Shown in pieces: positions 38,611 through 62,800 of a stretch of DNA of 64,000 nucleotides. This DNA is from a bacterium (lineage in GTDB: Bacteria; Zhuqueibacterota; Zhuqueibacteria; Residuimicrobiales; Krinioviventaceae): positions 142,860 to 206,859 of the forward strand of contig JAKQIY010000006.1 in assembly GCA_029561455.1 (NCBI GenBank), written 5' to 3'. The stretch's first letter is position 1. Every line of letters starts with the position of its first letter. The translations under genes and the position numbers were made by a program. The notes beneath the pieces are model-generated. The model did no database searches, had not been told where the DNA came from, and saw only the letters and a list, made by a program, of their open reading frames with translations.

Positions 38611-38642
38611 GATAAACCTCTCTTTTTGTTTAATTTATGTTT

Positions 38643-39545: not shown

Positions 39546-39666
39546 GGTACTACCCCTTTCTTAAAAATTTTACAGCGTTTTGGTTAAACTGTTGGTTATT
39601 ACTGTTAAAATGCTTACTCCCACAACCCTCCTTTCACGTGTTGATAATTACTAGTATTGTTGATTG

Positions 39667-41091: not shown

Positions 41092-41531
41092 TACAGACCC
41101 TCGCCATTGTAGTATGGTAATTCGATAGTTGTGGTGCCGCCGGTGGAAGGATCGCTGATCTCTATACGCAGCCCCTGTTCAGCGGGAATGACATCAATAG
41201 TATAATCGCCAATTTCATAATGCCCTTCTTCCAATTCCGATTCACCGAATATCTGCGTAACCAGTTTACTGGAAAGCCGGCTCAGAATTTGCCGGTTTAT
41301 ACTGTCGGTAAAATCTTCCAGGGGGTCGCTGGCCTGATAGGAATAAGAACTGGCTTTATCCCCGGTCTTGTCCTGCAGTTGTGCAGAACTTAACAGCCAC
41401 GAAGCATTATATGGATTTCCGCCAAAATTAGGGTTTACAAAGGTATGGACTAATTCTGTGGTGTAACCGGGTAAAACAGAAAACAGAATCAAGCCTAGAA
41501 CGCAAAAAACACCAAAACAGCTCTTGTTCAT
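41091..41531 (-). CDS. csgF: Curli assembly protein CsgF.
   Basis: A signal peptide is followed by [29 protein letters not shown], which matches E. coli CsgF [27 protein letters not shown]. Also [11 protein letters not shown] matches NFTQAIQSQIL, and [29 protein letters not shown] matches [29 protein letters not shown]. The ATGA start/stop overlap with csgG indicates translational coupling. Confidence 0.8.
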   Translation of the reverse strand: [146 protein letters not shown]

Positions 41532-41542
41532 AGTTATTCTCC

Positions 41543-42115
41543 CTAATAAATACCTGTTCCAGCCATATCGTCGCCGGCCATTTGTTTTTGATCCTGAGTG
41601 TAATTAACCAGATAATTGCCGGTAAAACCAGTTGCCTGCCTGGCAGCCTCTTCGATTTCGTCGGATCTTGGCGTTAATCGGTTTTGGTAAATAGAAATAT
41701 CGTTAATATTTATGAAAACCCAGCTGCCGGATTGCCCGGTCGGCATTTCTGAAATATAAATTGTATAATCATAAACCCCGGCAGGAGGCTCCCAGAGGGT
41801 ATAAAAATACTCATAAAATTCCTGACCGATTTTGGTTTTGGTATCGTTAATTATCAGTCCATCAATTTCCAATACATCGCCCGGACGAGTATTTTTTACA
41901 GTCTCAGTTTGTTCTGTTTCTTTAACAGTATCAGCCTGCTGCTGGACTTCCTGCCGGGCTTCCTGCAGTAATTTTTCCAGCAACGCTTTGGTGTTCTGTG
42001 ACTTTTTTTCTTTATCGCTGACTGTTGTACTATCGTTTGTTTGCGTATAAAGGGGTACAGTCATCATAAAAACACACAGCATCGTAACTAAAGTACTGGT
42101 TACACATTTTTTCAT
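41543..42115 (-). CDS. csgE: Curli production assembly/transport component CsgE-like protein.
   Basis: A signal peptide is present. LEIDGLIINDTKTKIGQEFYEYFYTLWE matches E. coli CsgE [28 protein letters not shown], and GSWVFININDISIYQNRL matches GSWITITVNQDVIFQTFL. It is the first gene of the E-F-G order and lies 12 bp upstream of csgF. Confidence 0.65.
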   Translation of the reverse strand: MKKCVTSTLVTMLCVFMMTVPLYTQTNDSTTVSDKEKKSQNTKALLEKLLQEARQEVQQQADTVKETEQTETVKNTRPGDVLEIDGLIINDTKTKIGQEFYEYFYTLWEPPAGVYDYTIYISEMPTGQSGSWVFININDISIYQNRLTPRSDEIEEAARQATGFTGNYLVNYTQDQKQMAGDDMAGTGIY

Positions 42116-42751
42116 AAATTTTTCAGGTGCAGCGAATTAATAAAAGGAACAAGTAATCCCCTTTTTCATCCCACACCCGACTCGCCCTTAATATGATATG
42201 AACCAGGAAATTAACATTATTATATGTCTAGTTTTTTTATTAATTCAAGCACTATGCCAGGTAGAAATTCAGATCTATTGGACAATAACCCCTATGTTGA
42301 TATTTTTCAAATATTTGTAAATGTTCTTATTTCGTAAATATCTTCGAGGAATGGAATTTGTGTTTCCTGACTGAAACAGGTTGATGACAATAATGCTATA
42401 ACATCATAAAAAACATAAATCAAGCAATTGTACTAAAAATGACACAAAAAAGCATCATTCGTGTAATTCGGAAAAATTTGTAATTATACCTGTAATAAAA
42501 AAAAACAAACAATTAAAACAAAAATGATCATTAAAAATACTCAACTTTAGATTGCCAGGTAAGTTATTTGAAAATTAAAGATGATGAGGTTTTAGAGCGG
42601 GACCTTGACAGTACGATTCACTCTTTTTTAACCAGAAGCATAAATTTTTAAAATTATAGCTTCTGGTTCACAATCTCCCGATTGGGAACCCGCTTGTACA
42701 AAATCTCTGATTTGATATGCAAAAATTATATAAAAAAATAACTGCTTTAAA

Positions 42752-42801
42752 GGAATCGGAGATTCCTGACCACTTTCGTTCCTGAACGGGAAATCAGGAA
42801 C
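42752..42801 (-). terminator. Candidate intrinsic terminator of two tandem hairpins for the minus-strand operon 44765->42882.
   Basis: Two perfect hairpins are present: GTTCCTGA-ACGGGAAA-TCAGGAAC (42778-42801) and GGAATC-GGA-GATTCC (42752-42766). Read on the minus strand, they are followed by a T-rich run (the reverse complement of 42721-42750). Confidence 0.3.
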
Positions 42802-42881
42802 TAAGAAACAATGATTGTAAATTACTTGCTTATTGAAATGAACTCTTTAATCACGCCGTTTCCCGGTGTCATTAATACTAT

Positions 42882-43055
42882 CTAAAAGGACAACAGCGAA
42901 TCCGTCTCGTTCTCCACCCGTTTGCGCGTTACATACACTACAAAGCCATCCACCCCGGAGCCGTCATAATCCACTTCCAGAGATACCTTGCTGCGACTCT
43001 GGATGATCTTGTGCAGCAGCCGGATGATCTGCGGTATACTCAACTTGCCGCTCAT
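42882..43055 (-). CDS. Hypothetical small protein, 57 aa.
   Basis: It reads MSGKLSIPQIIRLLHKIIQSRSKVSLEVDYDGSGVDGFVVYVTRKRVENETDSLLSF. Its ATG overlaps the TGA of the upstream small gene (ATGA), which indicates translational coupling. It is not in the ORF track, and I did not recognise a family (it faintly resembles DUF2283). Confidence 0.35.
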   Translation of the reverse strand: MSGKLSIPQIIRLLHKIIQSRSKVSLEVDYDGSGVDGFVVYVTRKRVENETDSLLSF

Positions 43056-43291
43056 GCTGTTTTCACTCCTTCAAATCCTGCCTCGGCAAACCGTTTTTCG
43101 GTAATTTTCCCGCTCACCAAGCCAATGCTTTCCACCCGCCCGGACTTTTCCCGGCATTCCCGGCAATCTTGCGCTAAACAACGGGTGCAATAATGGCATT
43201 TTTCTGTATTGTCTTGCATTTTTTCTCCACTATTTTTTCCAAAACCCCAATTAGGCCTTAATAGTTGCAATACCTTGTCCCCTTTGTCCAT
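43052..43291 (-). CDS. Hypothetical small Cys-rich protein, zinc-ribbon-like, ~79 aa from ATG 43291.
   Basis: It reads MDKGDKVLQ...EKCHYCTRCLAQDCRECREKSG..., with a GGTGGA Shine-Dalgarno 5 nt upstream of the ATG. It contains a C-x2-C...C-x2-C cluster. The track lists a GTG-initiated version starting at 43300. Confidence 0.4.
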   Translation of the reverse strand: MDKGDKVLQLLRPNWGFGKNSGEKMQDNTEKCHYCTRCLAQDCRECREKSGRVESIGLVSGKITEKRFAEAGFEGVKTA

Positions 43292-43400
43292 GCCGTCCAC
43301 CGGTTACCGGGTGAAGCATTCTGTCCAGGACTTGTTACAGTTTAAATTTCATTTGGAACGAATGCTTCACCCCTACTCAACTAGACAAAAATCCCGGCCA

Positions 43401-44765
43401 TCAATTCTCCACCCCCAACAACCTTCTTGCCCCCCGCACCGCGCCGTTGCGGCCATCCCCATCGGCGATAACCTGCAACAATCCCGCCGCACGGTTGATA
43501 CCCTTGATCCGCTTTTTCGGCAAAAATCCCCCATTACGCACCAGGTGGACAAACTCTTCTTCATCGATCATCCCCATTTCAAACATGCGCTGGTAAGCGT
43601 TCAACTCCTTGTCCAGCGCCGTGGCGTTCAGCAGCCGCGCCCGCGCCTGTTCCGTCTTGTCGAGCAGATTAACCTCTTTCCATTCCAGCTTCCAGTTCGC
43701 CCCGGCCTCGCCGCGCAGGATCAAAAACGTATCCACCACGCGACGTATAATCGGGTCGATTTTCGTCCGGTACGAGTTGATATTCGCAACGATCATATCG
43801 TTCTGGTTATTGCTCATCCGCTCGGTCGTCGTCCACTTGTACAGACCGAACATAAACGGCGGCAGTCCCGTTTTGGTTATGATTTCCTCCTGCGCCGTAT
43901 GCACCGGCACTTGCAGGTTCAATATGGTATCCTGTCCGCCGAGTATTTTCACGTCGATACTGGCCCCCTCCGGCACGGCCGCGGCTACATCCCGCACACT
44001 CCCCCTGCGCCGAGCCCGGAACACCTCGGTAATATCATTCTGCAAATCCTCCGCCGCTTTTTTTACGCGCCCGAAATCGCCCCCGCGGCCCCCTTGCACC
44101 GTCACCAGGAAGGTCGGGTCCCCCACCCGCCATACCTGGTTTTCGATAGCCTGCTGGATGCGTAAAAAGATTTTCACCACAAACGGCAGCGAATAAAACA
44201 GACTGTATCCCTGCGGATGCCCGTCCCGCTGATCAAAACTGAGATAATAGATGAAATCCTGGTTGGCAAACGGCAGCACATTAAACACCCCCTCGCGCGC
44301 CTGACCCAGCAGCAAACAACCGTTGCGCTCCACAAAGCGGAAATCGTTGGCACGGGCGATCTTGAGCTGCTCCACATCATCCAGCATTTCGGACGGCACC
44401 AGTTCCCCAAAACCCATGCCTTTAGCCAGCGCCGAATCGCACAACTGGTCCACCCACGTATTCAGGCCCGAACTGAAATGGTTCACCCGTACGCCGGACT
44501 TGAACGCGTTCAGCAACTGCTGCACGCGCGGATCTTGCGCGGTCAACTCAAAATCGCCGATCAGCCGCACCAGCTTGATTACCGCCACATCCAAAAGCGG
44601 CACCGCCTCGCGCATCAGGTCGTACAAGTCCAGGTTGAACTTTAATGGCTGATAACCTTGCAGCGCCAGCGCAAAAGGATTCTCCCACGCATCGCGCGTC
44701 TGTGTCCGACTGCTTTTGGCGGACTCTTCCCGCCCCGCAAACCACCTGCTAAAAGGATTTCGCAT
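43401..44765 (-). CDS. Hypothetical soluble protein, 454 aa, family not recognised. It has a vague phage-portal-like feel.
   Basis: The ORF is intact with no signal or TM segment. It has a Gly-rich loop (VQGGRGGDFGRV). It is the first gene of a three-gene minus-strand operon. Confidence 0.6.
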   Translation of the reverse strand: MRNPFSRWFAGREESAKSSRTQTRDAWENPFALALQGYQPLKFNLDLYDLMREAVPLLDVAVIKLVRLIGDFELTAQDPRVQQLLNAFKSGVRVNHFSSGLNTWVDQLCDSALAKGMGFGELVPSEMLDDVEQLKIARANDFRFVERNGCLLLGQAREGVFNVLPFANQDFIYYLSFDQRDGHPQGYSLFYSLPFVVKIFLRIQQAIENQVWRVGDPTFLVTVQGGRGGDFGRVKKAAEDLQNDITEVFRARRRGSVRDVAAAVPEGASIDVKILGGQDTILNLQVPVHTAQEEIITKTGLPPFMFGLYKWTTTERMSNNQNDMIVANINSYRTKIDPIIRRVVDTFLILRGEAGANWKLEWKEVNLLDKTEQARARLLNATALDKELNAYQRMFEMGMIDEEEFVHLVRNGGFLPKKRIKGINRAAGLLQVIADGDGRNGAVRGARRLLGVEN

Positions 44766-44933
44766 CTTTTCTCCCCTCTTTAATCACGACTACAAGATAC
44801 ACAAATAATTCTTTTTTCCAAGCAAGATTGGGTAATTTACACAGAGGGGGGAAAGAAATTATTTTTTATGCTTGTTCAACTCTTCAACCAGTTTGAAAAT
44901 AATGTTACATTTAAAAATATTCAAGAAAAACAA

Positions 44934-44962
44934 TTGACAAAACGCTTTAAATATATTAGATT
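44934..44962 (+). promoter_or_regulatory. Candidate sigma70-like promoter (TTGACA-N17-TAGATT) for the nucleotidyltransferase gene, possibly giving a leaderless mRNA.
   Basis: TTGACA is at 44934-39, a 17-nt spacer follows, TAGATT is at 44957-62, and the ATG is at 44969 with no SD. Confidence 0.25.
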
Positions 44963-44968
44963 TAAAGC

Positions 44969-45238
44969 ATGATATCAACTCAAGACAAACAACAAATAAT
45001 TGAAATTGCCCAAAAATACCAGGCAGCGCGCGTTTTTCTGTTTGGTTCCAGTATCGATCCGCACAGAACTCCAAAAGATATTGATCTAGCTGTGGAAGGC
45101 CTGCCCGATAACCTGTTCTTCAAATTCTGGGGCGAACTTATCTTTGCCCTCTCCAAGCCGGTTGATCTGATTGATCTGAAAAGAGAAACCCGCTTTACAG
45201 AAATAATCCGCGCTGAAGGTCTTTTATTATTTGGATAA
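44969..45238 (+). CDS. Minimal nucleotidyltransferase (MNT) domain protein, the antitoxin-type partner of HEPN/MNT pairs.
   Basis: The motif LFGSSIDPHRTPKDIDLAVEG matches the G[SG]...D.D nucleotidyltransferase fold signature. It is 89 aa. No HEPN partner ORF is evident next to it. Confidence 0.7.
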   Translation: MISTQDKQQIIEIAQKYQAARVFLFGSSIDPHRTPKDIDLAVEGLPDNLFFKFWGELIFALSKPVDLIDLKRETRFTEIIRAEGLLLFG

Positions 45239-45272
45239 TATACTGTATCCATAATCAACTACTCACCTTAAC

Positions 45273-45320
45273 AAATCGTCCATTCAATGGCTGAATTTCA
45301 ACCACTGAGTGGACGATTTG
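45273..45320 (+). other. Strong stem-loop immediately downstream of the MNT gene, a possible terminator or attenuator.
   Basis: A 15-bp stem with one G-U pair (CAAATCGTCCATTCA / TGAGTGGACGATTTG) encloses an 18-nt loop. It is not followed by a clear U-tract. Confidence 0.3.
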
Positions 45321-45490
45321 CATAATTTAACTCCTTAATAATCAATAAAACTACCACTAAAAATCAAACAAAACTTTAAAAACATTTTTGCACATCTTTA
45401 ATTACAAAAAATCCTTGAATATCACCGGATTTTTCCTTAATATCACCATACAATCGGGTTGTACATCTTACTATATACGACCGGGTAACT

Positions 45491-46120
45491 ATGCAAAACT
45501 CAAATAAATATATTGCCATCATCGGCGATCTGGTCAACTCCCGCGCCATGACCAACCGCAACGAGGTGCAAAATGCGTTGATCAATACCCTGAACACTAT
45601 CAACTCCAGCGATCTCAAACAACATATCGCCGCCAAATTCGTTATTACCCTCGGTGATGAATTCCAGGGACTGGTAACGCGTAATTTCCCCCTTCACCCT
45701 TTTCTCGAATTATATCATTCCGGCCTGCCCGCCAATGTCGCTACCCGCTTTGGTATCGGCCTGGGAGAATTGGCCACCGAATTAAAAAGCGAAACCATCG
45801 GTATGGACGGCCCCTGCTTTCACAACGCCCGCTCTGCAATTACCAGGGCTAAAAACGAAAATATCAACCTTATCTTTCAGGGTTTCGAAATGAATACCGC
45901 TCTCAATGCCTTGTATCATAACATTAACAATATTACCCAAAACTGGAAAGCCAGACAACTGCAAGTTATCTCGCTTTATAAAGATACGGAAGATCAAACG
46001 AATGTTGCAAAAAAAATGAAAATATCAAGACAAGCGGTTCATCGTATTTTAAAAGCAGCAAAATATGACCTGGTGCAAACCGGCTGGGATGGTGTACAAG
46101 AACTATTCTCCTTTATTTGA
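45491..46120 (+). CDS. SatD-like protein with a C-terminal helix-turn-helix, a putative regulator.
   Basis: The N-terminal YIAIIGDLVNSRAM resembles the signature I recall for SatD-family proteins. The C-terminal KMKISRQAVHRILKAAK is HTH-like, sigma-70 region-4 style. Confidence 0.45.
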   Translation: MQNSNKYIAIIGDLVNSRAMTNRNEVQNALINTLNTINSSDLKQHIAAKFVITLGDEFQGLVTRNFPLHPFLELYHSGLPANVATRFGIGLGELATELKSETIGMDGPCFHNARSAITRAKNENINLIFQGFEMNTALNALYHNINNITQNWKARQLQVISLYKDTEDQTNVAKKMKISRQAVHRILKAAKYDLVQTGWDGVQELFSFI

Positions 46121-48204: not shown

Positions 48205-49860
48205 GTGACTATGAAAACCTTACTAAAAACCATCTGTTTTATTTTGTGTTTGTTTATTCCGGTTTTAACTTTATCCACAACGCCGCCTCCTCCCTCGATA
48301 CAGATCAACGACGCGATGGAATTCACCTCCTCCAATTTGCCGATTGTCGTCATCAATACCAACGGTATGCAAATCCGCGATGATCCGCGTATAATAGTGG
48401 ACATGGGCATTATCGATAACGGCAATGGCCAGCGGAATAATTTAACCGATCCCTTCAACGATTACAACGGTAAAATCGGCATCGAATATCGCGGCAGCGC
48501 CACCAGCGCTTATCCCAAAAGACAGTACCGCATCGAAACCGTCGATTCCCTCGGCGAAAACCTCAATGTCTCCCTCATGGGCCTGCCCAAAGAAAATGAC
48601 TGGATTTTATATGGGCCCTATACCGACGATATTTCCCTCATTCGCCATGTTCTCGCCTACCGGCTGTCCAATGAAATTGGCCGCTATGCCAGCCGCACCC
48701 GGCTCTGCGAACTGGTGATGAATGATGATTACCGCGGTTTGTATGTGCTTATGGAAAAAATTAAACAGGATAAAAATCGCGTCGATATTGCTAAACTACT
48801 CTCTACCGATATTACCGGCGACGAGATCACCGGCGGTTATATAATCAAGGTCGATAAATCTGCCGGAGAAAACGTCGCCGGCTGGCAATCTGAAAACCGC
48901 GTCAATTATCAGTACCATGATCCCCAGGCTGATGAACTGGTTACCCAGCAAAAACAATACATCAAAGATTACATCAATAGTTTTGAATCCTGCATGGCGA
49001 ACCTGGATGATAACGAACAGAACGACATTCCGGAGTATGCCGCTTTTATCGACGTACCTTCATTTGTCGACCATTTTCTACTCAATGAATTCTGCAAAAA
49101 CGTGGACGCTTACCGAATCAGCGCTTATTTATATAAAGAAAAGGACAGCAAAGGCGGTAAACTTTATGCCGGGCCGGTGTGGGATTTCAACCTCAGTTTT
49201 GGTAACGCCTGGTATGCTGAAGATTACATGGTTACCAATACCTGGCAGGTGGATTATACCACTATCATTCGTCCCTGGGATGGTTATAAAGTCCCATTCT
49301 GGTGGCCAATTTTGGCGCGCGATCGGGCTTTTGTTGAATTACTCTTGCAGCGCTGGAATGAACTCAAAAACCTCAATTTCAGCAAAGATCATCTTTATAC
49401 GGTTATTGATAATCTCGTTATTGTCATGACTGAAGCCCGGCTACGCAATGCAGCGCGCTGGCCGGAAATGGCAGATAATGATTACGAGGCGGAAATAACC
49501 ACTATGAAACACTGGCTCAGCGACCGCTGGGACTGGATGAATATCAATCTTGGTTTATTGCCCTCCGGCACTAGCGGTTCGGCAGATGTGGCTAATCAGT
49601 TCGCTTTACAACAAAATTTCCCCAATCCGTTCAATCCCGCTACTACCATAACCCTCAAGATATTATCAAAAGCGCAGGTCGAATTAAAAGTCTACAACAC
49701 CCTCGGCCAGGAAGTAACCACCCTGGTCAATGATGTTATTTCACCAACACTAAGCTATCCTGTTGAATTCAACGCTGCCGGATTACCATGCGGAGTATAT
49801 ATTTATCAACTCAAAGCCAATAATTATGTCACGTGCAAAAAAATGGTACTGATCCGATAA
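48205..49860 (+). CDS. CotH kinase family protein with a T9SS C-terminal sorting domain.
   Basis: CotH-like blocks are present (EYRGSATSAYPKRQYRIE; YRLSNEIGRYASRTRLCELVMNDDYRGLYVLMEKIKQDKNRVDI; LNEFCKNVDAYR). A signal peptide is present. The CTD reads NFPNPFNPATTITLKIL...LKVYNTLGQEVTTLV...GVYIYQL...KKMVLIR. Confidence 0.8.
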   Translation: MTMKTLLKTICFILCLFIPVLTLSTTPPPPSIQINDAMEFTSSNLPIVVINTNGMQIRDDPRIIVDMGIIDNGNGQRNNLTDPFNDYNGKIGIEYRGSATSAYPKRQYRIETVDSLGENLNVSLMGLPKENDWILYGPYTDDISLIRHVLAYRLSNEIGRYASRTRLCELVMNDDYRGLYVLMEKIKQDKNRVDIAKLLSTDITGDEITGGYIIKVDKSAGENVAGWQSENRVNYQYHDPQADELVTQQKQYIKDYINSFESCMANLDDNEQNDIPEYAAFIDVPSFVDHFLLNEFCKNVDAYRISAYLYKEKDSKGGKLYAGPVWDFNLSFGNAWYAEDYMVTNTWQVDYTTIIRPWDGYKVPFWWPILARDRAFVELLLQRWNELKNLNFSKDHLYTVIDNLVIVMTEARLRNAARWPEMADNDYEAEITTMKHWLSDRWDWMNINLGLLPSGTSGSADVANQFALQQNFPNPFNPATTITLKILSKAQVELKVYNTLGQEVTTLVNDVISPTLSYPVEFNAAGLPCGVYIYQLKANNYVTCKKMVLIR

Positions 49861-50153
49861 AAAAATTCTTCTCTTCGGGTTTGAATAAATGGGGGAATTA
49901 ATTTATTTAAAAAAAAGTTATTTATATATATTTTTGAAGATCGGATATTCTATAAATCCCTGCCCGGTATAATTTTTCTATTCTCCTAGAGTTTAATACT
50001 CAATGAAGAAAAGTGATTAATTCGATCTTGTACAAATCTCAGGTCTGCCACGAAATAAACGCCACCACTCTCCGGTATTATGAATCTGTAATTTTACTTT
50101 TAGGTGTAGAGTAATTTCCTTATCTAAAATTTCTCATTATCAGGAGAGAGCTT

Positions 50154-53100
50154 ATGAAAATGCATAATTTTTTACTCTGTATGATAGGCTTTATTTTGTT
50201 TTCCGGAATTTCATTAGCTACCGCTCCCTCTAGCGGGTTAAAACCAGATTTTCCAAATTTGTTATACACACAATACATACCTTCACTATTAACTATACCA
50301 ACTGCATCACAATTAACCAAAATTGCCGATATTGGCGGACGAACCAACACAATTATATTCAAGGATTATTACGTTTGCGCCAATGAAGGCAGAAACCTGG
50401 TCATTATCGATTTATCCGACCCAACTACACCGCAACTAATGAGTAAGCTCCAGCTAGGTGAGAGCTTTATCACCAATCTCTTTGTTTCCGGTGAAAAGGC
50501 GCTGGCCTGCACAGAATTTTCCGGCACATATATTATTGATCTGACCAATCCATACACACCTGTCATTATCGGTCATATTCCGGCGATTGGCATCGTTTAT
50601 GAAACTTATTTTGCAGGTAATTATGCATATCTTGCAGAAGGGAAAAATGGCTTTAACATTTATGATATTACGAATCCTGAACAGCCGCAAACTGTTTACC
50701 ATAACGCCGATTCCACCTATAATATTCGGATTAATGGTGCATTTTGTTATACCTGCAGCGGCTCAAAAATTACAGAATTGAATGTAAACAACCCGGCTTC
50801 ACCGCAAATAATTACGGAATTCAAACTTGGTTTTGATAATGCCAGGATGCTATATCTACACAATAATTAGATTTATGTACAGGATTACCATGAATTGCGC
50901 ATTTACGACATCAGCAATCCAGCAACATTACATCAAACTGGTTCTTATTCCTTCCCATCAGATCCCTGGGATTTAAAAGTGAATGGGAATCTCGCCTATA
51001 TTGTCTGATCCAGGTATTTTAGTATCCTGAATATCAGTAATCCTGCCACTCCACAATTAGTTAGCCAACAAGTGAACTTTTATCGGCCCTTACAGCTAGC
51101 AGTGTCAGGCGATTTGGCCTTGCTAGCCTGTTGGGAAAATAATATTCAGGTCCATAATTGCAGTGATCCTGCCAATCCAGCGCTAATATCCACCTGGGTA
51201 GGAGTGGCGCCAGTTGCACAATCAATAACAATAGATAAAAACAAAGCATTTATTGCCGAAAGGATGGGGGGAATGGCTATTGTGGATATTTCCAATCCGG
51301 CAGTTCCGCAATTAATACAAAAATATACAAACAACCTTAAAAGCTGTGATGCCGTCGCCGTTAAAGATAACATTGTACTGCTGGCCGAAACTGATATATT
51401 GCATATTTTTGATTATTCAAATCCGGCAGGGCTTTTACCCCTTGCCGATTTTTCTGTTCCGGAAGGTACAATAAAGAGTATATTAATTGACGGCTCGACA
51501 GCCTGGCTGGCTGCAAGTAATGAGGGTTTGATCGCACTGGATATCAGCGATCCGGCTCATCCTGCTAAAATCAGCCAGGTGGACAATTCTCAATATGTAG
51601 GAAATTTGGCAATATCCGGCAATTATATATGGGTTACCGAATACCTGTGTGGTTTGAGAGGATATAATATTTCAACCCCTTCAAATCCTCAGGAGATTGC
51701 ATTCATCCCAACTCTTTCCAAATCCAGAGATATTGTCATTAGTGGTAACTATGCTTATATCATCCAGGATGATAATTCAAAAATTTACATTGTGGATATT
51801 AGCGCTCCGCTATCGCCAGGTGTTGTGGATAGTGTGAATACCGAGATTTTTGACCCTTATTCTGTTCACATACAAAATAATATACTTTTTATTGCCGGAT
51901 TTAGAGGAATTCAGGGCTTTGATATCAGCAATCCAACGCAACCTGTCGAGGCCATCGCTTATTGTAAAGTATCTACCAATATTAATCATATAAAGGGAAA
52001 CAATGAATTTCTGTATGCCGCAAATGAAGGTATGGGCCTTGAAATCTACAAACTGCCAGGCTCACCTGTTGTTTCAGGAATAATCGTTACAAACACCAAT
52101 GACCTGGGGGAAGGCTCGCTGCGCCAGGCGCTGGATCAGGCCAACAGTGAAACAGGCCCCGATACCATCCGGTTTAATATTCCTGTCACCGACCCGAATT
52201 ACAATGCCGCCTCAGGTGTGTGGACAATTAAACCGGTTTCACAGTTACCATCCTTTAATGAGCAGACAGTTATTGAAGGTAATTCCCAGGCTGATTTTAT
52301 CGCCGAAGACACCAATCCCAACGGCCCGGAAATTCAAATCGACGGCAGCCTGTTATCATCCTGTCCGGGTTTAATTGTCAACGCCGATAATTGTGAAATC
52401 AGCGGCCTGGCTATTATCAATTTCCAGAGAGCGGCCATAAACGCCTCTCATGTTAACGGCCTTAAAGTCTGGGGCTGTTACCTGGGTCTCGATGCCACAG
52501 GCGCTACCGCCGGCCCCAACCTGTACGGCATTTTCTTATTCAACAATTGTAGCAACTCCATCATTGGTCCCATTGATGATTCCATGTCCCCCAATGTTAT
52601 CTCCGGAAATAGCGAAGTCGGTATTTACCTGGTACAAAACTCGTCAAATAATACTGTATATCGAAACATAATCGGTCTTGATCCGCAAGCGACTGTAAAG
52701 ATCGGCAATGCCGTTGCCGGTATTGCTATTGGGGATCAGTCCATAAATAATATGATTGCGGAAAATATTATTGCCGGTAATAAAGATGGTATTAGCATTG
52801 CTGATTGCATTGAAAATCAAATTCAGAACAACTCTATTGGCGCCAATCCCGAGTTCATTGCCAATCTTGGCAACACCGAATATGGTATCTACATAACGGG
52901 CTCCTCGGAACGTAATATGATTTGTGAAAATTCCATCTGGTATAACGGTTTGTACGGTATACTTGTTATAGGTCAGAATTGTGTTACAAACACTATCAGC
53001 CGCAACAGCATTGCCTTTAATTCGGAAGCGGGCATCGACCTGCGCTACGGCGGCAATAACGACATGCAGCCACCCGGACAGTTGCATAAAACCGGCGCAA

Positions 53101-53609
53101 CCCTCAGCGGCGTAACCGTGCCCAAAGCAGTTGTAGAATTGTTCAGCGACCAGCATGATCAGGGCCAAACTTTCCTGATAGATACCTTTGCCGATAACAA
53201 CGGCGTTTTCTCCTTTTCCCTGCCTGCTGAGCCACTTTTACCCAATTACACCCTGACGGCTACAGATACATTAGGCAATACCTCGGCATTTACCGCGCCT
53301 ATCTCTACAGTAATTATGGAACAGGAACAAGCAAAAATCCCTTCTCAATTTACACTGGAACAAAACTACCCCAATCCCTTCAATCCGGTTACCTCAATTC
53401 GCTACGGCTTGCCAACTGCCGACCTGGTTACTGTTAAGGTATTTGATATTCTTGGTAAAGAAACAATGACCCTGATAAATGCGGAAAAACAAGCAGCCGG
53501 CTGGCATAACCTCAAATTCGACGCCTCAACACTCACAACCGGTCTCTATTTCTACAAGGTTATTACTACCCGTTCAAAAGGGAGTGGCAAAATGATACTT
53601 GTCAGGTAA
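50154..53609 (+). pseudogene. LVIVD-repeat / right-handed beta-helix T9SS cargo protein interrupted by two in-frame stop codons. It is a paralog of 53993-57454.
   Basis: A single reading frame is collinear with the 1153-aa paralog throughout. It contains an in-frame TAG at 50868-50870 (LYLHNN*IYVQDYHELRIYDISNPATL, versus LYLHNDLLFVANNNILHIYNVSNPAT in the paralog) and an in-frame TGA at 51006-51008 (NLAYIV*SRYFSILNISNPATP, versus NLAYIADYYHIILLDLSNPANP). The track splits it into 50154-50870 and 51072-53609. It ends with an intact T9SS CTD. Confidence 0.6.
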
Positions 53610-53992
53610 ACGAGTTGGGTAATACATAGCCCTGTCGTCAATATACTGCCTCCAGAACTCTGACTCGCATTTTCCCCAACAGTATTCGGTATGTCTGGTC
53701 TTTTAACCTGGTTTAATGCATGAGAGGCATCAGTCCTGAACCTATCTGGGAGTTATTACTGGCATTCGTGTAACTCACTTTAGAGCTATACCGGTTTTCT
53801 CTTTATCTTCTCAATCGGTATGTTTTTTCAAAAATCCTAAAAAAAGTAATATTGTATTAAAATTTTATGTATATTTCATCTCAGATTAAAAAATTCAACT
53901 CTTTTAAAGCTCGTTTTTTCAATATTCCAATTCGATGAGTAAAATTAGAAAATTATAATTGCCCAATTTATCTCATAATCGGGAGAGTTGTC

Positions 53993-56900
53993 ATGAATAA
54001 ACATTACACCCTGTTCTTTATGTGTGGATTGTTGCTGCTAGCCTGCTTTGCTTCTGCAGTTCCATTCTCACCCGGCGTTCCTGCGCAGGCTGCCTCCGCT
54101 TTACTCACCCGGCCAAATCCCCTCTTGTACACTGAAAACACTGCCAGTTCAGGTTTAACCAAAATTGCCGATATTGGCGGGCAAAGCAGGGATATTGCCT
54201 TAAATGGTTATTATGCTTATACCGGCGAGGGCAATAAACTGGTCATTCTCGATGTCTCCAATCCCGCTGCCCCGCAATTACTCAGCAGATTGAAACTGGG
54301 AGAAAGCGAAATCTATAATATTACTGCTTCGAATGATCTGGTTTTCGTCTGTACTGAATATTCAGGTTCTTTTATTATCGATGTCGCTAATCCCCATACG
54401 CCGGCTATTGCCGCCCATCTACCGTATACGGGCTGGTCATTCAAATCCTGTCTCGCCGGAAATTATGCTATTTTGGCCAGGGGAACCAACGGCTATATCA
54501 TTTTTTATATCGTCGACCCCTATCAACCACAGGTTGTATATACCGGTTCCGTTATTGCCAATGCAGTAGAGGTAGTTGGTAATTACTGCTTCCTGGCCGA
54601 TTATACCAAACTGACAGTTCTCGACATCAGCGCACCCGCGGCGCCTCTGTTGGCCGCCGAATACCCGTTTGCCTACAACGACGCCTCGATGTTGTATTTA
54701 CACAATGACTTGCTGTTTGTTGCCAACAATAACATTTTGCATATCTATAACGTCAGCAATCCGGCGACCATTGCAGAGCTCAGTTCCTATACGTTCACTG
54801 CGGGCTATCCCTACGATGTAAAGATGGTCGGCAATCTTGCTTATATTGCTGATTATTATCATATTATTCTTCTTGATCTCAGCAACCCGGCGAACCCGCT
54901 TTTGCTTGGTCAGGAAGACATTGGCTGCCTTCCCTACCAGTTAGCCGTTTCAGGAAATTTTGCTTATTTCGCCTGTTTTTATAAAAACGTCCAGGTCTAT
55001 AATTGCAGCGATCCTGCAGACCCATTTTGGTTTTCCGAATGGACCGGCCCGGTTCCCACCGCACGGGAATGCGTTCTTGACCAAAACAAATTATATGTCG
55101 CCAACCGTGAAGCCGGTATGAGTATTCTGGATATCTCTGTTCCCCAATCACCTTTTTTACTGGGCAAATATACTGACATTTTCTACAGTTGCAATGCCCT
55201 GGCGGTTAAAGATAATTATGTTCTGCTTGGCGACCTGGATACGCTGCGTATTATTAATTGCTCAAATCCCCAGGCGCTCGTGCAGGTTGCCACGTTAACC
55301 TTATTAAACGGCTATATAAGCGATATTAAAGTGCGAAATTCGTATGCCTGGGTAACGGATAATTATAACGGCCTGATCGGGGTAGATATCAGCAATCCCG
55401 CCAACCCGGTCATTACCGGTAACTATGATACTCCGGGCGATGCGTGTCATTTGGCATTATCCGGTAATTATGCCTGGGTTGCCGATGGGTCTTCCGGTTT
55501 ACGCTGTATGAATATTGCATCTCCTGCCAATCCGTTCGAAATCGCTGTGGTGTCCTCTTTAAAAAATGCTTATGATGTTGAAATTTCCGGTAATTATGCC
55601 TGGGTCGTAAAAAGGTGGAATCCCTATATTTATCAGGTAGATATCAGTACGCCCTTGCTGCCGATCATTACCGACAGTATTAATACACAAATTTTTGACC
55701 CGTTCTCCGTACTTATTCAGGATAATCTTGTATTAATTGCCGGGGTTCAGGGTATTCAGGGTTTTGATATCAGCAATCCGGCTCAACCCGTCGAGGCAGT
55801 TCCATTTTATCAGGTTTCCTCATGGGTATCCGGCATGGACGGCAGCGCTGAATATCTCTTTACCGCCAATGACGGCATGGGCGTCGAAATTTTTAAACTG
55901 CCAACGCCTTCTCCGTTTACCGGACTGCTGGTAACCACTACCGCCGATAGCGGCGCCGGCTCCCTTCGTCACGCCATTGAACAAGCGAACATTAAAGCAG
56001 GGCCGGATACGATACGCTTCAATATACCTGATAGCGACCCCAATTTTAATATTATTGACGGCGTGTGGCACATTCGCCCGGCGTCCCCGCTGCCCTCGAT
56101 TACCGACGCTCTAATCATTGAAGGCTATTCTCAAACCGATTTTATTGCTGCCGATACCAATCCCGCCGGACCGGAAATTCAAATCGACGGCAGCCAGGTT
56201 TTTTCCGGCTCCGGTCTGAACGTTAATGACTATAACTGTGAAATCAGCGTTCTGGCGATCATTAACTTTCCCCATGCGGGTATTATGGTCTCCATTGCCG
56301 ATGGTATAAAAATCTGGGGTTGCTACCTGGGAATCAATGCCACAGGCAGTGCCGCCGGGCCCAATCGCTATGGATTATATTTATGGGGTGGCTGTGAAAA
56401 TTCAATTATCGGCCCCCAGGGTGCCTCACAAACTGCCAATGTAATTTCCGGTAACAGCGAAACCGGCATATTCATTGATGAAGACTCGCGCAATAATAAT
56501 ATAACCGGGAACATTATCGGTTTGAATTACAACTCTAATCTAAAACTGGGGAATGGTTATGCCGGGATCGCCCTGCAGGAGCAATGCAACGATAACCGGA
56601 TCGCTGAAAATATTATTAGCGGTAACGGCAATGGCGTAATCATAACCGAATGTGCCGGTAACCTGCTTGAAAATAACATCATCGGTACAAATAACAGTCT
56701 TGCTCCCGAACTAGGTAATACGGAATATGGCGTTATCATTATGACCAAAGCATTTCAAAACAAGCTATCCGAAAATATTATCTGGTACAACGGTAAAAGC
56801 GGTGTGCTTGTCAATGGTCAAACCAGTTATGCCAATACTATTTCCCGCAACAGTATTGCTTTTAACACCGACGCCGGTATAAAGCTGGTCAATAACAGTA

Positions 56901-57454
56901 ATGATAATATCGATCCTCCCGCCCAGTTACACAAAACCTGGACCACCCTCAGCGGCGTCACCCGGCCATTAGCAACAGTAGAACTGTTCAGCGATCAGGA
57001 CAGTCAGGGTCAGAATTACCTGGGAGACACTATTGCCGATAATAGCGGCGCCTTTTCATTTACCTTGCCGGTTAATCCGTCTTTATCGTATTACACCCTG
57101 ACGGCTACGGACACCTCCGGCAACACCTCGGCGTTTTCCATGTCCCTGCCTACCGACATCGAGGAACAACAGCAGCAAAAACTGCCGGAACATTTCACCC
57201 TTGATCAAAACTATCCCAATCCCTTCAACCCGGTAACCACCATACGTTATGGCCTGCCCGTCGCCGAGGTTGTCACCCTTAAGGTATTCGATGTACTTGG
57301 CCGCGAAATGCTGACCCTCATCGACGCCGAAAAACAATCCGCCGGCTGGCACACCTGTACATTCGAAGCCTCCCGCCTCGCCAGCGGACTCTATTTCTAC
57401 CGGCTGCAAACCCCGCATCAAACGCTTTGGGGTAAAATGACGCTGGTGAAATAA
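53993..57454 (+). CDS. LVIVD-repeat / right-handed beta-helix protein with a T9SS C-terminal sorting domain, 1153 aa.
   Basis: A signal peptide is present. Repeated LVIVD-type units are present (KLVILDVSNPAAPQLL; LTVLDISAPAAPLL; HIILLDLSNPANPLLLG; MSILDISVPQSP; IGVDISNPANPVI...). The middle has a parallel beta-helix-like run (N.I.GN.......I...). The CTD reads NYPNPFNPVTTIRYGLP...LKVFDVLGREMLTLID...GLYFYRL...GKMTLVK. Confidence 0.8.
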   Translation: MNKHYTLFFMCGLLLLACFASAVPFSPGVPAQAASALLTRPNPLLYTENTASSGLTKIADIGGQSRDIALNGYYAYTGEGNKLVILDVSNPAAPQLLSRLKLGESEIYNITASNDLVFVCTEYSGSFIIDVANPHTPAIAAHLPYTGWSFKSCLAGNYAILARGTNGYIIFYIVDPYQPQVVYTGSVIANAVEVVGNYCFLADYTKLTVLDISAPAAPLLAAEYPFAYNDASMLYLHNDLLFVANNNILHIYNVSNPATIAELSSYTFTAGYPYDVKMVGNLAYIADYYHIILLDLSNPANPLLLGQEDIGCLPYQLAVSGNFAYFACFYKNVQVYNCSDPADPFWFSEWTGPVPTARECVLDQNKLYVANREAGMSILDISVPQSPFLLGKYTDIFYSCNALAVKDNYVLLGDLDTLRIINCSNPQALVQVATLTLLNGYISDIKVRNSYAWVTDNYNGLIGVDISNPANPVITGNYDTPGDACHLALSGNYAWVADGSSGLRCMNIASPANPFEIAVVSSLKNAYDVEISGNYAWVVKRWNPYIYQVDISTPLLPIITDSINTQIFDPFSVLIQDNLVLIAGVQGIQGFDISNPAQPVEAVPFYQVSSWVSGMDGSAEYLFTANDGMGVEIFKLPTPSPFTGLLVTTTADSGAGSLRHAIEQANIKAGPDTIRFNIPDSDPNFNIIDGVWHIRPASPLPSITDALIIEGYSQTDFIAADTNPAGPEIQIDGSQVFSGSGLNVNDYNCEISVLAIINFPHAGIMVSIADGIKIWGCYLGINATGSAAGPNRYGLYLWGGCENSIIGPQGASQTANVISGNSETGIFIDEDSRNNNITGNIIGLNYNSNLKLGNGYAGIALQEQCNDNRIAENIISGNGNGVIITECAGNLLENNIIGTNNSLAPELGNTEYGVIIMTKAFQNKLSENIIWYNGKSGVLVNGQTSYANTISRNSIAFNTDAGIKLVNNSNDNIDPPAQLHKTWTTLSGVTRPLATVELFSDQDSQGQNYLGDTIADNSGAFSFTLPVNPSLSYYTLTATDTSGNTSAFSMSLPTDIEEQQQQKLPEHFTLDQNYPNPFNPVTTIRYGLPVAEVVTLKVFDVLGREMLTLIDAEKQSAGWHTCTFEASRLASGLYFYRLQTPHQTLWGKMTLVK

Positions 57455-57485
57455 AATACCGGGTACAAATATTTCGTTTTTTCTC

Positions 57486-57513
57486 AGAGCAAGGGGCAAA
57501 AGCCCCTTGCTCT
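57486..57513 (+). terminator. Candidate intrinsic terminator hairpin downstream of the 1153-aa gene.
   Basis: A perfect 12-bp stem (AGAGCAAGGGGC / GCCCCTTGCTCT) closes a 4-nt AAAA loop, 32 nt after the TAA stop. It is flanked by T-rich sequence on both sides. Confidence 0.5.
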
Positions 57514-57539
57514 AAATTCTTTCAAATTCTATATTCATC

Positions 57540-57905
57540 TAGTCAACACTGTCCATGCCGTCCACCCCCTGAAAAACAAGCTCTTTCACCAACGTCATTT
57601 GCAGATCGCGCCGGGATTCATATCCCGGTGCGGGAAATAAACCAGGGTTTCTAACCCTGGATAATGATGTTAATACTCTGCATTACCAAACTGCATTTCT
57701 GGTTCCAGGCCTCCCGGCTTGGAACCCCTTTACCCCGGCTCTGCCGGTAAAAATATGAATACTTTTACAGGGCGTCCCCCCGAACGCCCCATCGCTCAAT
57801 CTCGCTCAGGGAGTCCGTCCCAGAGCGCATAATAATGTAGAACATCCGTCCTGTAGTAAAATTTATAGTTCTGTATCAAGGGCAAAAGTCCCTTGTTTAA
57901 TATTT
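57540..57905 (+). ncRNA. Candidate structured small RNA, unassigned; the strand is uncertain.
   Basis: The segment is gene-free and carries at least five perfect GC-rich hairpins within ~250 nt: CCGGGAT-TCAT-ATCCCGG (57611-28), CCAGGGTT-TCT-AACCCTGG (57642-60), GGTTCC-N14-GGAACC (57701-26), GGGCGT-N7-ACGCCC (57770-88), and CAAGGG-CAAAAGT-CCCTTG (57877-95). The last is followed by TTTAATATTT, which looks like a terminator. It did not match RNase P, tmRNA or other motifs I know. Confidence 0.2.
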
Positions 57906-58422
57906 ATTATCCAACCTCACCCCTTTTCCCATCATACCAATTGCAATTCCTATCTGCTCTTGAAAACTATTTTATTTGAGCTGAATTCATCTGACGGATA
58001 ATGTATGTTATTTTATTATAATTCTTTAGGCTTGTCTAAAATTTTTTCACCTAAAAAATGAATAATGGTTTTTTTACTTGCTACAAGCATCGAAAATTTA
58101 TATATTGCATCGTGAATGGAGTGGGCCTTTTTTAATCGGGGGGCCTCAAGCTGGACCTCAAATTCGGGATTTATTTAAATTTCCAAAAGCGCAAAAACAC
58201 TATCAAAAGTTATTTTTTACCAGGTGTTATTTTTTACACATTTAATTGTGTTTTTTACAACAGTATGAATTATCAGGGCTTTTAGACCCTGATTTACATT
58301 CATAGCAGGCGTTTAAGAACTATTTAAATTTTTACCTGAAACAAACCTGTAATTAATATTTACTAATTACTACTTATTCAATTATGGGTAATGTTATGGG
58401 TAATTAAGAGGAGGAGGAACAG

Positions 58423-59859
58423 ATGGGTAAATTTTGTAGTAAAATTTTATGGGGAGCGCTGATCACTCTCACTTTCTCAACACTGGTACGTGGTCAAACG
58501 CATTTCTTGTTCACCCCAACTGAAGACTATTATAGTATCATCGTCAGCCAGGCAACAATTGCCGGTCAACCCCTGCAAAACGGCGATGAAATCGGAGTCT
58601 TTTATGATAATGGCAGCGCCATGGTTTGCGCCGGAGCAGTTGTCTGGCCTAACAACGGCATTAGCGCCTGGGGTGATGATTCACAAACTACTGCTAAGGA
58701 TGGCTTTGCTACCGGTGATTTGCTGGTTTTCAAAATCTGGGAGTCAGGATCAGCATCTAATTATGACGATGTAAACGCTACATTCTCAACAGGCAACGGT
58801 ACCTGGGGCAATGGTATTTATGCTCAGGTGAGTCTTGATGCTGTACCATATATCCCTATCGGCCCGGATCTGGATGTACAGGATAATGTTCATTCTTTTA
58901 ATTTCGGGAATATCACTGTCGGATTAAATTCATCGCATACTTTTGTTATTCAGAATGAAGGCGATGCAAGTCTGGATATCTCTTCTATCGATATTGGTGG
59001 AACCAATGCAACTGATTTCAGCATTTCCAGCGGAGGCGGAACTTTCTCTGTTGCTGCCGGCAGCGATCATAATTTGGGTGTACAATTTACTCCAGCGGCA
59101 GCAGGAGCCAAAACTGCAACACTAACCATTTACAGCAACGACCCGGATGAAAACCCCTGGCAAATAATTCTTTCCGGTTCAGGTGAAACAGTCCTGCCGC
59201 ATTATAACTTTGCAGCCACTGAAGACTATTATAGCATTGTAATCAATAATGTGACAATAAATGACCTGCCTTTGCAAAATGGCGATGAAATTGGCGTCTT
59301 TTTTGATAATGGCAGCACCCTGGTTTGCGCAGGCGCAGTTATTTGGCCTGATTATGGTTTGAATGCCTGGGGTGACGACTCCCAAACCAACGACAAAGAT
59401 GGATTTATTGCAGGTGAATACCTGGTTTTTAAAATTTGGGATGCCAGCGCTTCAACCGAGTATACTAATATCAATGCCCTTTATCTGTACGGTGACGGCA
59501 CCTGGGGCAACGGTGTGTTTGCTCAGGTTAATTTGCATAATGTTCCTGTTGCTATTAACACAACAAACGATACAAGACCGATCCAGTTCGATCTGCTACA
59601 AAATTATCCTAATCCATTCAATCCGCAAACAACAATAGAGTATTCCCTGCCGGAAACTGCAGATGTACAGGTCGAGGTTTTTAATATAACTGGACAAAAA
59701 ATATGTACCCTGGTCAATGAAAAATTACAACCGGGGTATTATCGAGTGGTTTGGGATGGTACAAATGACCGTTCCGAAACGGTTAGCGCCGGTATTTATT
59801 ATTTAATCCTTAAAGCCGGAAATTATACCCAAACAAAAAAAATGGCCTTTATTAAATAA
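58423..59859 (+). CDS. T9SS cargo protein with two copies of an uncharacterised ~110-aa domain, 478 aa.
   Basis: There is a strong SD (AAGAGGAGGAGG) and a signal peptide. The internal duplication is FTPTEDYYSIIVSQATIAGQPLQNGDEIGVFYDNGSAMVCAGAVVWPNNGISAWGDDSQTTAKDGFATGDLLVFKIWESGSA, then FAATEDYYSIVINNVTINDLPLQNGDEIGVFFDNGSTLVCAGAVIWPDYGLNAWGDDSQTNDKDGFIAGEYLVFKIWDASAS. The CTD reads NYPNPFNPQTTIEYSLP...VEVFNITGQKICTLV...GIYYLIL...KKMAFIK. Confidence 0.75.
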   Translation: MGKFCSKILWGALITLTFSTLVRGQTHFLFTPTEDYYSIIVSQATIAGQPLQNGDEIGVFYDNGSAMVCAGAVVWPNNGISAWGDDSQTTAKDGFATGDLLVFKIWESGSASNYDDVNATFSTGNGTWGNGIYAQVSLDAVPYIPIGPDLDVQDNVHSFNFGNITVGLNSSHTFVIQNEGDASLDISSIDIGGTNATDFSISSGGGTFSVAAGSDHNLGVQFTPAAAGAKTATLTIYSNDPDENPWQIILSGSGETVLPHYNFAATEDYYSIVINNVTINDLPLQNGDEIGVFFDNGSTLVCAGAVIWPDYGLNAWGDDSQTNDKDGFIAGEYLVFKIWDASASTEYTNINALYLYGDGTWGNGVFAQVNLHNVPVAINTTNDTRPIQFDLLQNYPNPFNPQTTIEYSLPETADVQVEVFNITGQKICTLVNEKLQPGYYRVVWDGTNDRSETVSAGIYYLILKAGNYTQTKKMAFIK

Positions 59860-59885
59860 AAAAATATCTCAATTGTTTTTACTAA

Positions 59886-62800
59886 TTGGAGGGTGAAATG
59901 AATCATTTAAAAAATACAGTTCTTGCCCTGAATATAATGTTTTTCCTATTCCTTATGGGATCATTTTCATTTACGTATTCTGAACCAGAAGCAAAAGCAA
60001 ACGACCGTTTAAAACAATCTGATCAAAACAGGGATGACGGTAAAATTTCAATAATCAGAAAAAAACTGGATGGCTCATTGCTGGGAAAAATTGATTTTTC
60101 CAAAGAAACTGGCAGGATATCAAATACTGAAATACCTGAACCGCCATCTCCACCCACAACGGATGGGTGGCAAACAATCAAATCTGAAACATTTGAAGGT
60201 TCTTTTCCAAACGATTGGCAACTATTAGGAACAGGATGGGGTAAAAGTAATTATCGCAAAAATAATGGCACCTATAGTGGTTGGTGTGCCCAAGGTACGA
60301 ATCCAGGCGGTCATACCTATACATATAACATGAATACCTGGATGATTTATGGTCCTTTTGACTTGTCCGACCCTAACATTACTAATGCAAAACTGTCTTT
60401 CTGGCACTGGACTATATCCGAATATCAATATGATTATTTCATGGTAGGGGTTTCCAGAACCAGTTATAATTCCGGTTACAGTGTTTATGGTTATACCGGT
60501 AACTTTACAACTCTATCCGGAAATGTCAATGGCTGGAATTTCCTGGAGTTTGACTTGAATGATTGGGATGGCGAAGGCGACAGTTATCTTGACGATAATC
60601 AGGTATGGATTGCCTTTGGCTTTGGCAGTGATAATGTTGTAAATTATGAAGGTTCTTATGTGGATGATATATCAATAACCAAAGAAGCATCAGATCCTTT
60701 CACATTAACATCTCCCAATGGCGGGGAAACCTGGTACACGGGAAGTAATCAAAACATCACCTGGAATTCTACCGGCAACAGTGGTAATATTAAAATTGAA
60801 TATACTACCAATGGCACAAGTTGGACAACAATTGTTGCCAGCACTCCGGACGATGGATCTCATCCCTGGACTGTGCCGGATACTCCTTCTACCACCTGTA
60901 AGGTTAAAATTACGGATTCTGATGGAACGCCTACAGATCAAAGTAATAACAACTTTACAATTAAAGCGCCCTTTATTACCGTAGCTTCTCCTAATGGGGG
61001 TGAAAGTTGGGAATCTGGCACTAATCATAATATTACCTGGACTTCCGGGGGAACCAGTGGTAATGTAAAAATTGAATTTACGACCGATGGCTCTAACTGG
61101 ATTTCTATTATTGAAAGCACACCTGATGATGGCGCTCATTCATGGGCTATTCCTGAATCTCCATCAACCAATTGTCGGGTCAGAGTTACCGATGTTGACG
61201 GGAATCCAACGGATACAAGTAATAACTCTTTTACAATTACTGCCCCCAATATCATCATTACTTCTCCTAATGGTGGAGAAAGTTGGCTGCCTGATTCAAG
61301 TCATCCTATTACCTGGACTTCTTACAGAACAAGTGGTAATTTGAATATTGACCTTTCCACTAATAATGGGGTAAGCTGGACGAGAATTCTGTCCAATGTT
61401 ACAGATGATGGCTCAAAATCTTGGACAGTGTCAAATACACCATCATCACAATGTTTGATTGCTATCACCGATGCCGACGGAGCTCCTAGTGATACAAGCG
61501 ATAATGTATTTACAATACAAGGTGATAATATCACTATAACCTCACCCAACGGCGGCGAGAGTTGGGAAGTTGGCAGCGCCCATAACATAACCTGGACGAC
61601 ACTCGGTACTATTCCCAATGTTAAAATCGAATATTCCATTAATAATGGAACAAACTGGAACACAATCAACGCCAATACACCTAACAATAATACACTATCC
61701 TGGACTATACCCGATAACCAATCAACTAATTGTCTTATAAGGGTCGCAGACATCGACGGTACACCCACAGATCAAAGTGACAATGTCTTTACTATAACAA
61801 CACCTCCTTGTCCCCCCCACTTTGCATTTACGGTTACTGAAGACTATTATCCCATTTTATTATATACAGTGACACTCGATGATATCCCGGCAAATACCTG
61901 CGACGAAGTAGGCGTTTTTGCTTCGGATGGTCAGGGTGGGCTGGTATGCGCCGGTGCGGTAACCATTAACGGGGCGCCTCCTTATTCCTTACAAGCATGG
62001 AGCGATGATTCACAAACCGGGGTAAAGGACGGTTTCTCTTCTGGCGAAGCTTTGCATTACCGCTTCTGGGATAGTGAAACACAAACTGAATATGGACCGG
62101 AATTCAACGCGACCTATACTACCGGTAACGGTAACTGGGGAAATGGCGCTATGGCGGAAATCAATCCTCTTCAGTTCAAGGCTGGATGTAATCTGACAAT
62201 AAATCTCCTCGCTGGTTGGAACTGGATTTCCAGCAATGTTGCCCCTGATTCCCCGGATATGGAAACAGTGTGGGCTGGCATCCCCGGCTTGAATATTGTT
62301 AAAGGACAAAGCGGTTTTTATATTCCCGGCGTCATTAACACTATTGGCGATTGGGATGTAAAAAAAATGTACATGGTTAATGTACAATCAGCTTGCCAGT
62401 TAGTAATTACCGGCTCCTGCATTGCCGCCGACATGCCCATTCCCTTACAGCAGAATTGGAACTGGGTAGGTTACTTACCCAATTCCCCGATCAATGCCGA
62501 AACTGCTCTGGCCAGCATTGTCTCACATCTTTCTATTGCAAAATCCCGTAACGGCTTCTATATCCCGGGTACAATCAATAACATTGGTAATATGACCACC
62601 GGCTCCGGTTACCGGATATACCTGGATCAGGCAGCAACTCTCATATACCCCGCTGCTACAGCCAGCCCGGAGCAAAATTTAGCACCCGAATTACATAAAA
62701 CTGCACCACAAAGGCAACATTTTGCAACCAGGCCGCAAAGTGACGATTACCATGCTATAGTCATTGAAAATGTTCAGGGTCTACAACCTGGCGCAGAAAT

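Follow-up and report, generated by a model that had tools for sequence, protein, structure and literature searches.

A probable recent nonsense pseudogene in a tandem pair of type IX secretion cargo genes from an uncultured wastewater bacterium

The DNA analyzed in this study is a stretch of 64,000 nucleotides (nt) from a metagenome assembly (contig JAKQIY010000006.1 of GCA_029561455.1, positions 142,860 to 206,859), referred to below as the window. It contains two tandem paralogous genes for cargo proteins of the type IX secretion system (T9SS), of which the upstream one, at positions 50154-53609 of the forward strand, is interrupted by two in-frame stop codons. This gene is very probably a real and evolutionarily recent pseudogene, silenced by two nonsense lesions. 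All public assemblies of this strain have the broken allele as their consensus. A preliminary description of the window had left it open whether the gene is a very recent pseudogene or an artefact of assembly or of variants. The comparisons presented here support the former and exclude the latter at the consensus level.

Conceptual translation of 50154-53609 gave 1151 codons followed by a terminal TAA and, as described previously, only two internal stops, TAG at codon 239 (position 50868) and TGA at codon 285 (position 51006). Both were confirmed in the translation and in the DNA. The other five frames hold 50-90 stops each, so this is a genuine coding frame rather than one that stays open by chance. 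The disrupted gene and its intact paralog had the same Pfam domains: LVIVD repeats (PF08309), NosD/Beta_helix (PF05048 and PF13229), Big_6 and a C-terminal Por_Secre_tail (PF18962), which is the C-terminal domain (CTD) of T9SS cargo. The E-values of the LVIVD matches for the three pieces of the disrupted gene were 1.5e-12, 2.2e-6 and 8e-33, and the LVIVD bit scores ranged from 112 to 197. PF18962 matched residues 787-863 of the 866-residue downstream remnant with a score of 33.3 bits (cut-off 27). The paralog starts 384 nt downstream of the disrupted gene. A global alignment showed that the two are collinear from the signal peptide to the C-terminus, with 51% amino acid identity and only two gaps of one residue each, in agreement with the collinearity with the 1153-residue paralog that had been claimed as far as a shared T9SS CTD. 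The Shine-Dalgarno-like motif ahead of the disrupted gene is also kept on the contig of its ortholog (CAGGAGAAAAGTCATG).

This ortholog, an uninterrupted protein of 1152 amino acid residues from a sister lineage (JGI contig Ga0255812_10134438), was identified by a database search with the conceptual protein. It is collinear with the disrupted gene, and the identities between them are 86% at the amino acid level and 88% at the nucleotide level. Relative to neither the paralog nor the ortholog was any frameshift found, as had been stated before, and the sole indel relative to the ortholog is an in-frame 3-nt gap adjoining stop 2. The comparison with an ortholog, which the preliminary description had proposed, showed TTG at the position of stop 1 and GGG at that of stop 2. 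The flanks of stop 1 are identical to those of the ortholog over 29 bases upstream and 14 bases downstream. Because the ortholog reads TTG within identical flanks, stop 1 is a single T>A transversion of a Leu codon. The paralog also has Leu (TTG) at this position; the earlier statement that both stops face Asp codons (GAY) of the paralog is right for stop 2 (GAT) and wrong for stop 1.

Around stop 2, the ortholog reads GCA TAT ATT ATT GTC GGG GGC GAT TAT (A Y I I V G G D Y) and the window reads GCC TAT ATT GTC TGA TCC AGG TAT (A Y I V stop S R Y). Thus, the nine bases GGGGGCGAT of the ortholog (Gly-Gly-Asp) correspond to TGATCCAGG (stop-Ser-Arg) in the window, with the 3-nt gap in addition and with near-identical flanks. 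In the predicted structure this site is a loop between strands, and stop 2 may have arisen by a GGA>TGA change in a loop that had already diverged. The segment between the stops differs from the ortholog at only 6 nt, not counting the 3-nt gap at its 3' end. About 3.7% of the possible single-base changes in the disrupted gene create a stop, and the occurrence of two nonsense lesions without a frameshift is unremarkable. The spacing of the two stops, 138 nt, has a probability of about 8% for two uniformly placed hits; this closeness is suggestive at most.

A donor for the patch at stop 2 was sought among template switching, gene conversion from the paralog and a compensated frameshift, and nothing convincing was found. 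The 13-mer CTGATCCAGGTAT, which spans stop 2 (51001-51017), recurs once, at 62618-62634 on the reverse strand inside the cargo gene 59886-63341, at a chance expectation of about 0.06 matches. A 13/17 look-alike was seen by eye 45 nt upstream (50957-50973). Neither of them has extended flanking similarity, so both were rejected as evidence of template switching or gene conversion and are probably due to chance. An insertion with a compensating deletion was likewise rejected, as less parsimonious: removal of T 51003 restores the YIAD of the paralog, but the resulting frame runs into another stop after 10 codons.

The same locus was located in public assemblies by exact-sequence look-up of the 238-residue N-terminal open reading frame (ORF) and of the downstream ORFs as pipelines call them. 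It was present in five other assemblies: ENA ERZ27257428 (a 90-kb contig), NCBI GCA_035398985.1 (DAOPIE010000033.1), JGI 3300010355, and Logan SRR5007225 and SRR5007219. All five were byte-identical to the window over 7.7-18.5 kb, with 0 mismatches and with both TAG and TGA present. SRR5007219 and SRR5007225, the latter from a US wastewater sample (PMC7300365), are two sequencing runs, each of which was assembled by itself. The protein clusters held two NCBI accessions for each piece, which indicates that two deposited metagenome-assembled genomes carry both pieces. All gene callers break the locus up into two ORFs, an N-terminal one of 229 or 238 residues and a C-terminal one of 778, 829 or 835 residues, and NCBI annotates the N-terminal piece as a separate 'hypothetical protein' (HPG41936.1 / HPN46101.1).

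The ratio of nonsynonymous to synonymous substitution rates (dN/dS; Nei-Gojobori method) between the disrupted gene and its ortholog was 0.245 overall, at a dS of 0.30. The segment values were 0.357 upstream of stop 1, 0.124 from stop 1 to stop 2 and 0.233 downstream of stop 2. As an intact control, the paralog was compared with its own ortholog, which is 72% identical at the amino acid level and lies on an 8167-nt Logan contig of SRR27370449; dN/dS was 0.204 in this comparison, in which dS is near saturation. With the paralog and a homolog from candidate division KSB1 as outgroups, a relative-rate test counted 46 derived residues in the broken lineage against 39 in the intact lineage (p=0.52), i.e., no excess of amino acid change. 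Given the low dN/dS and the lack of rate acceleration, nearly all of the divergence built up under purifying selection, and the inactivation is recent compared with the split from the sister lineage.

To place the lesions in the fold, the ortholog was modelled with AlphaFold2 (Table 1); the mean predicted local distance difference test score (pLDDT) was 86. In Foldseek, the first ~640-700 residues of the model matched tandem seven-bladed propellers of the WD40 type in PDB, among them Utp21 and Elp2, at E about 1e-22, and these matches were generic only. A sequence search of PDB with the paralog returned no matches. In the ortholog model, stop 1 (residue 239) lies where the second strand of blade 5 begins and stop 2 (residue 286) just past the third strand of blade 6. 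By eye, the N-terminus of the N-terminal ORF (MKMHNFLLCMIGFILFSGISLA/TA) resembles a Sec signal peptide. This segment is now on a different ORF from the CTD, and only the conceptual uninterrupted gene would provide both on a single polypeptide, as cargo requires. Candidate starts for the C-terminal ORF, at which the gene callers begin it, are GTG 51072, GTG 51102, TTG 51120 and ATG 51273, none of which yields a signal peptide. The first three of them lack a Shine-Dalgarno-like motif, and ATG 51273 alone has a purine-rich stretch upstream (GGATGGGGGGA). A scan of 49700-54100 for promoter and terminator consensus sequences found nothing relevant above shuffle expectation.

Translation of the disrupted gene would stop at codon 239 and release a fragment of 238 residues. 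This fragment could be exported to the periplasm by Sec; with about 4.5 of 14 blades it would not be able to close its propeller, and lacking the CTD it would not enter the T9SS. It probably misfolds and is then degraded in the periplasm. The earlier suggestion that the 238-residue fragment would still be secreted may hold at most for the periplasm and does not extend to export by the T9SS. A product that restarted downstream would have no signal peptide, and its CTD would be stranded in the cytoplasm without access to the T9SS. Because neither product would complete the route through Sec and the T9SS, the cargo function of the disrupted copy appears to be lost, and the intact paralog presumably covers it.

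Other explanations were weighed against inactivation. As the window derives from a metagenome assembly, both stops might be sequencing or assembly errors in a gene that is intact in the organism. The chance of this is next to negligible: both stops recur in byte-identical DNA of five other assemblies from different pipelines, including the two runs assembled singly. Substitution errors in a consensus do not reappear like this, and a lesion made of a 9-base patch and a 3-nt gap is no single miscall. Two runs and several assemblers are enough to reject a consensus error. It is also extremely improbable that the full-length cargo is still made through decoding of the stops, whether by readthrough, by a suppressor tRNA or by insertion of selenocysteine (TGA) or pyrrolysine (TAG). 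The 866 downstream codons show no decay, with the dN/dS given above, as would also be expected of a gene that still functions, but recent loss explains the low ratio equally well, since dN/dS averages the whole divergence. The terminators of 32 ORFs in the window were TAA in 23, TGA in five and TAG in four, one of the last being the premature stop of the disrupted gene itself. Behind each of the eight other TGA and TAG terminators (five and three genes, respectively), a further in-frame stop lies in the intergenic sequence, 0-34 codons away. Within the window the genetic code is standard, and the previous judgement that genome-wide recoding is unlikely agrees with this. No tRNA gene was found in the window, nor any Rfam family at gathering score, including the selenocysteine insertion sequence (SECIS). 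Moreover, the homologous residues of the ortholog and paralog are Leu and Gly/Asp rather than Cys, selenocysteine or Lys. Two recoding systems, one for each stop codon, would also be needed inside one secreted beta-propeller, where relatives have Leu and Gly/Asp.

A functional split gene, in which the 238-residue N-terminal piece or a restarted C-terminal piece of 778-845 residues has its own role, is very improbable. The NCBI, JGI and ENA pipelines call both pieces as ORFs, and the G-rich stretch GGATGGGGGGA precedes ATG 51273. However, the N-terminal piece ends within blade 5 of a seven-bladed propeller, so that the fold cannot close, and it has no CTD; without a signal peptide at any candidate start, the CTD of the C-terminal piece would be useless, and three of the four starts have no Shine-Dalgarno-like motif. 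In addition, the 45 codons between the stops are left unaccounted for, and among the searched homologs, none at high identity naturally consists of only one of the pieces. Selected rather than neutral loss is unlikely. In this scenario, silencing one of the two surface paralogs brought an advantage, such as escape from a phage or predator with that protein as its receptor, and the broken allele then swept through the population. Adaptive loss commonly targets surface proteins, all assemblies of the strain show the broken allele and no other, and the two lesions lie close together. But a clonal bloom or shared raw data could also account for fixation, a selected knock-out does not need two stops, and their proximity is not significant. 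There is a slim chance that the silencing of one T9SS surface paralog was followed by a selected sweep in a dominant wastewater or digester strain or, as a variant, that leaky stops make the gene a contingency locus with low-level, conditional expression.

Several observations weigh against a real and recent pseudogene, the reading preferred here. The assemblies may share raw reads or a single treatment-plant system, and their independence is firm only for the two runs and several assemblers. Their identity holds at the consensus level, and a minority intact allele in the population is possible. Relative to the sole ortholog at hand, the lesion at stop 2 is no simple point mutation and may have arisen by a multi-base event. 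Finally, no intact allele of ancestral type that is more than 90% identical to the version of this strain was found by database search or in the protein clusters. Protein scans of metagenome and genome contigs for more alleles gave two irrelevant matches of 43% identity and no genome match, and contig scans with a DNA pattern across stop 1, with N at the mutated base, gave no further alleles. Apparently, the species is absent from the searched GTDB representatives, or its representative lacks the locus. The SRR27370449 contig has no ortholog of the disrupted gene upstream of the paralog's ortholog and so provides no extra allele. There, a different gene is found upstream and a sulfatase gene downstream. 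The relative represented by this contig has therefore not conserved the LVIVD genes as a tandem pair.

Similar to other bacterial pseudogenes disrupted by nonsense mutations, the gene has in-frame stops, a full-length frame collinear with its homologs, an intact paralog next to it and no further visible decay. It does not differ from them in kind, and its public annotation is two separate coding sequences rather than a pseudogene. The conceptual full-length protein shares with T9SS cargo of the type-A CTD (PF18962) an N-terminal segment like a signal peptide and a C-terminal Por_Secre_tail; different from such cargo, the disrupted gene has them on separate ORFs. With the LVIVD-repeat cell-surface proteins (PF08309; Adindla et al. 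2004, PMC2447325) it shares repeats of ~42-43 residues, predicted beta-propeller blades and the character of a surface or secreted protein. Different from those proteins, the repeats are fused here to a NosD-like parallel beta-helix, Big_6 and a T9SS CTD, and no solved structure is detectable by sequence. The closest named homolog of the gene family is from candidate division KSB1, at 44-48% identity. The gene resembles selenocysteine (UGA) or pyrrolysine (UAG) recoding only in that a conserved frame contains TGA and TAG in phase; the missing SECIS/Rfam match, the homologous residues and the use of both codons as ordinary terminators nearby set the gene apart from such systems.

For annotation, the public coding sequences 'hypothetical protein' and 'NosD domain-containing protein' should be merged into one pseudogene. 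The locus is a cleanly dated example of how an uncultured wastewater lineage very recently lost one of two copies of a T9SS cargo gene, and it shows turnover within a large secretome island. It reveals no new mechanism and opens no long-standing question. What is new is the instance and the correction of its annotation only; otherwise it is a textbook recent nonsense pseudogene.

Table 1. Features of the disrupted gene, its paralog, the ortholog model and the curli-type locus. Positions are those of the window unless given as residues.
Feature	Position	Strand	Remarks
Whole disrupted gene	50154..53609	+	Signal peptide, ~14 LVIVD beta-propeller blades, NosD-like beta-helix, Ig (immunoglobulin) domain, T9SS CTD
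AGGAGA Shine-Dalgarno-like motif	50142..50147	+	6 nt 5' of ATG; read from sequence
N-terminal remnant ORF, 238 residues	50154..50870	+	Signal-peptide-like N-terminus, ~4.5 LVIVD blades, without CTD
Premature stop 1, TAG	50868..50870	+	TTG (Leu) in ortholog and paralog
Inter-stop segment, 45 codons	50871..51005	+	LVIVD repeat still recognisable
Locally rearranged patch around stop 2	50999..51014	+	Comparison with ortholog
Premature stop 2, TGA	51006..51008	+	GGG (Gly) in ortholog, GAT (Asp) in paralog
Downstream remnant, 866 codons	51009..53609	+	Remaining LVIVD blades, beta-helix, Big_6, T9SS CTD
Beta-helix of downstream remnant	about 52707-53060	+	Pfam
Big_6 of downstream remnant	about 53082-53288	+	Pfam
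T9SS CTD of downstream remnant	about 53367-53597	+	Pfam
Intact paralog, 1153 residues	53993..57454	+	Same architecture; 51% amino acid identity
N-terminal helix	residues 5-17		Ortholog model
Disordered linker	residues 16-51		Ortholog model
~54 beta-strands (~14 four-stranded blades)	residues 55-634		Ortholog model
Beta-helix	residues about 643-975		Ortholog model
Ig-like sandwich	residues about 976-1038		Ortholog model
CTD	residues 1080-1150		Ortholog model
CsgE	41543-42115	-	
Small ORF of curli-type locus	41091-41531	-	
CsgG	39667-41091	-	
Seven consecutive curlin-repeat (PF07012) genes	31112-39545	-	291-619 residues
OmpA-family gene	29836-30996	-	

The window as a whole is a secretome island. 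Besides the LVIVD pair, it contains at least nine further cargo genes with Por_Secre_tail, and genes for cargo with a T9SS CTD are dense at 899-20261 on the reverse strand and at 48205-63341 on the forward strand. The cargo encoded in the island includes two S8 subtilases, a C25 gingipain-like peptidase (1309 residues), two M6 peptidases, a CotH protein and two large Ig/MAM-domain proteins. An internally repeated module ('TEDYYSI...GDEIGVF...AWGDDSQT') is common to the genes at 58423-59859 and 59886-63341. No genes of the T9SS machinery (PorK/L/M/N, SprA/Sov, PorU/V) were found within the 64-kb window; given the many other CTD cargo genes in the window, the genome likely encodes a T9SS.

A curli-type secretion locus is located at 29836-42115 on the reverse strand of this non-proteobacterial, T9SS-rich genome (Table 1), and its seven CsgA-like paralogs in tandem are unusual. 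Five tandem paralogs of ~330-346 residues, four of which have a weak CarboxypepD_reg domain, are encoded at 22964-28215 on the forward strand, downstream of a gene similar to those for TonB-dependent receptors (20462-22951). The GC content was 0.35-0.37 over 24-28 kb, as compared to 0.42-0.50 elsewhere. The orphan ORF at 43401-44765 on the reverse strand, of 454 residues, has no significant Pfam domain and lies where the GC skew is strongly negative (-0.20, 42000-46000). It adjoins a Polbeta nucleotidyltransferase ORF (44969-45238) and a SatD-family gene (45491-46120), and it may be what is left of a mobile element or phage.

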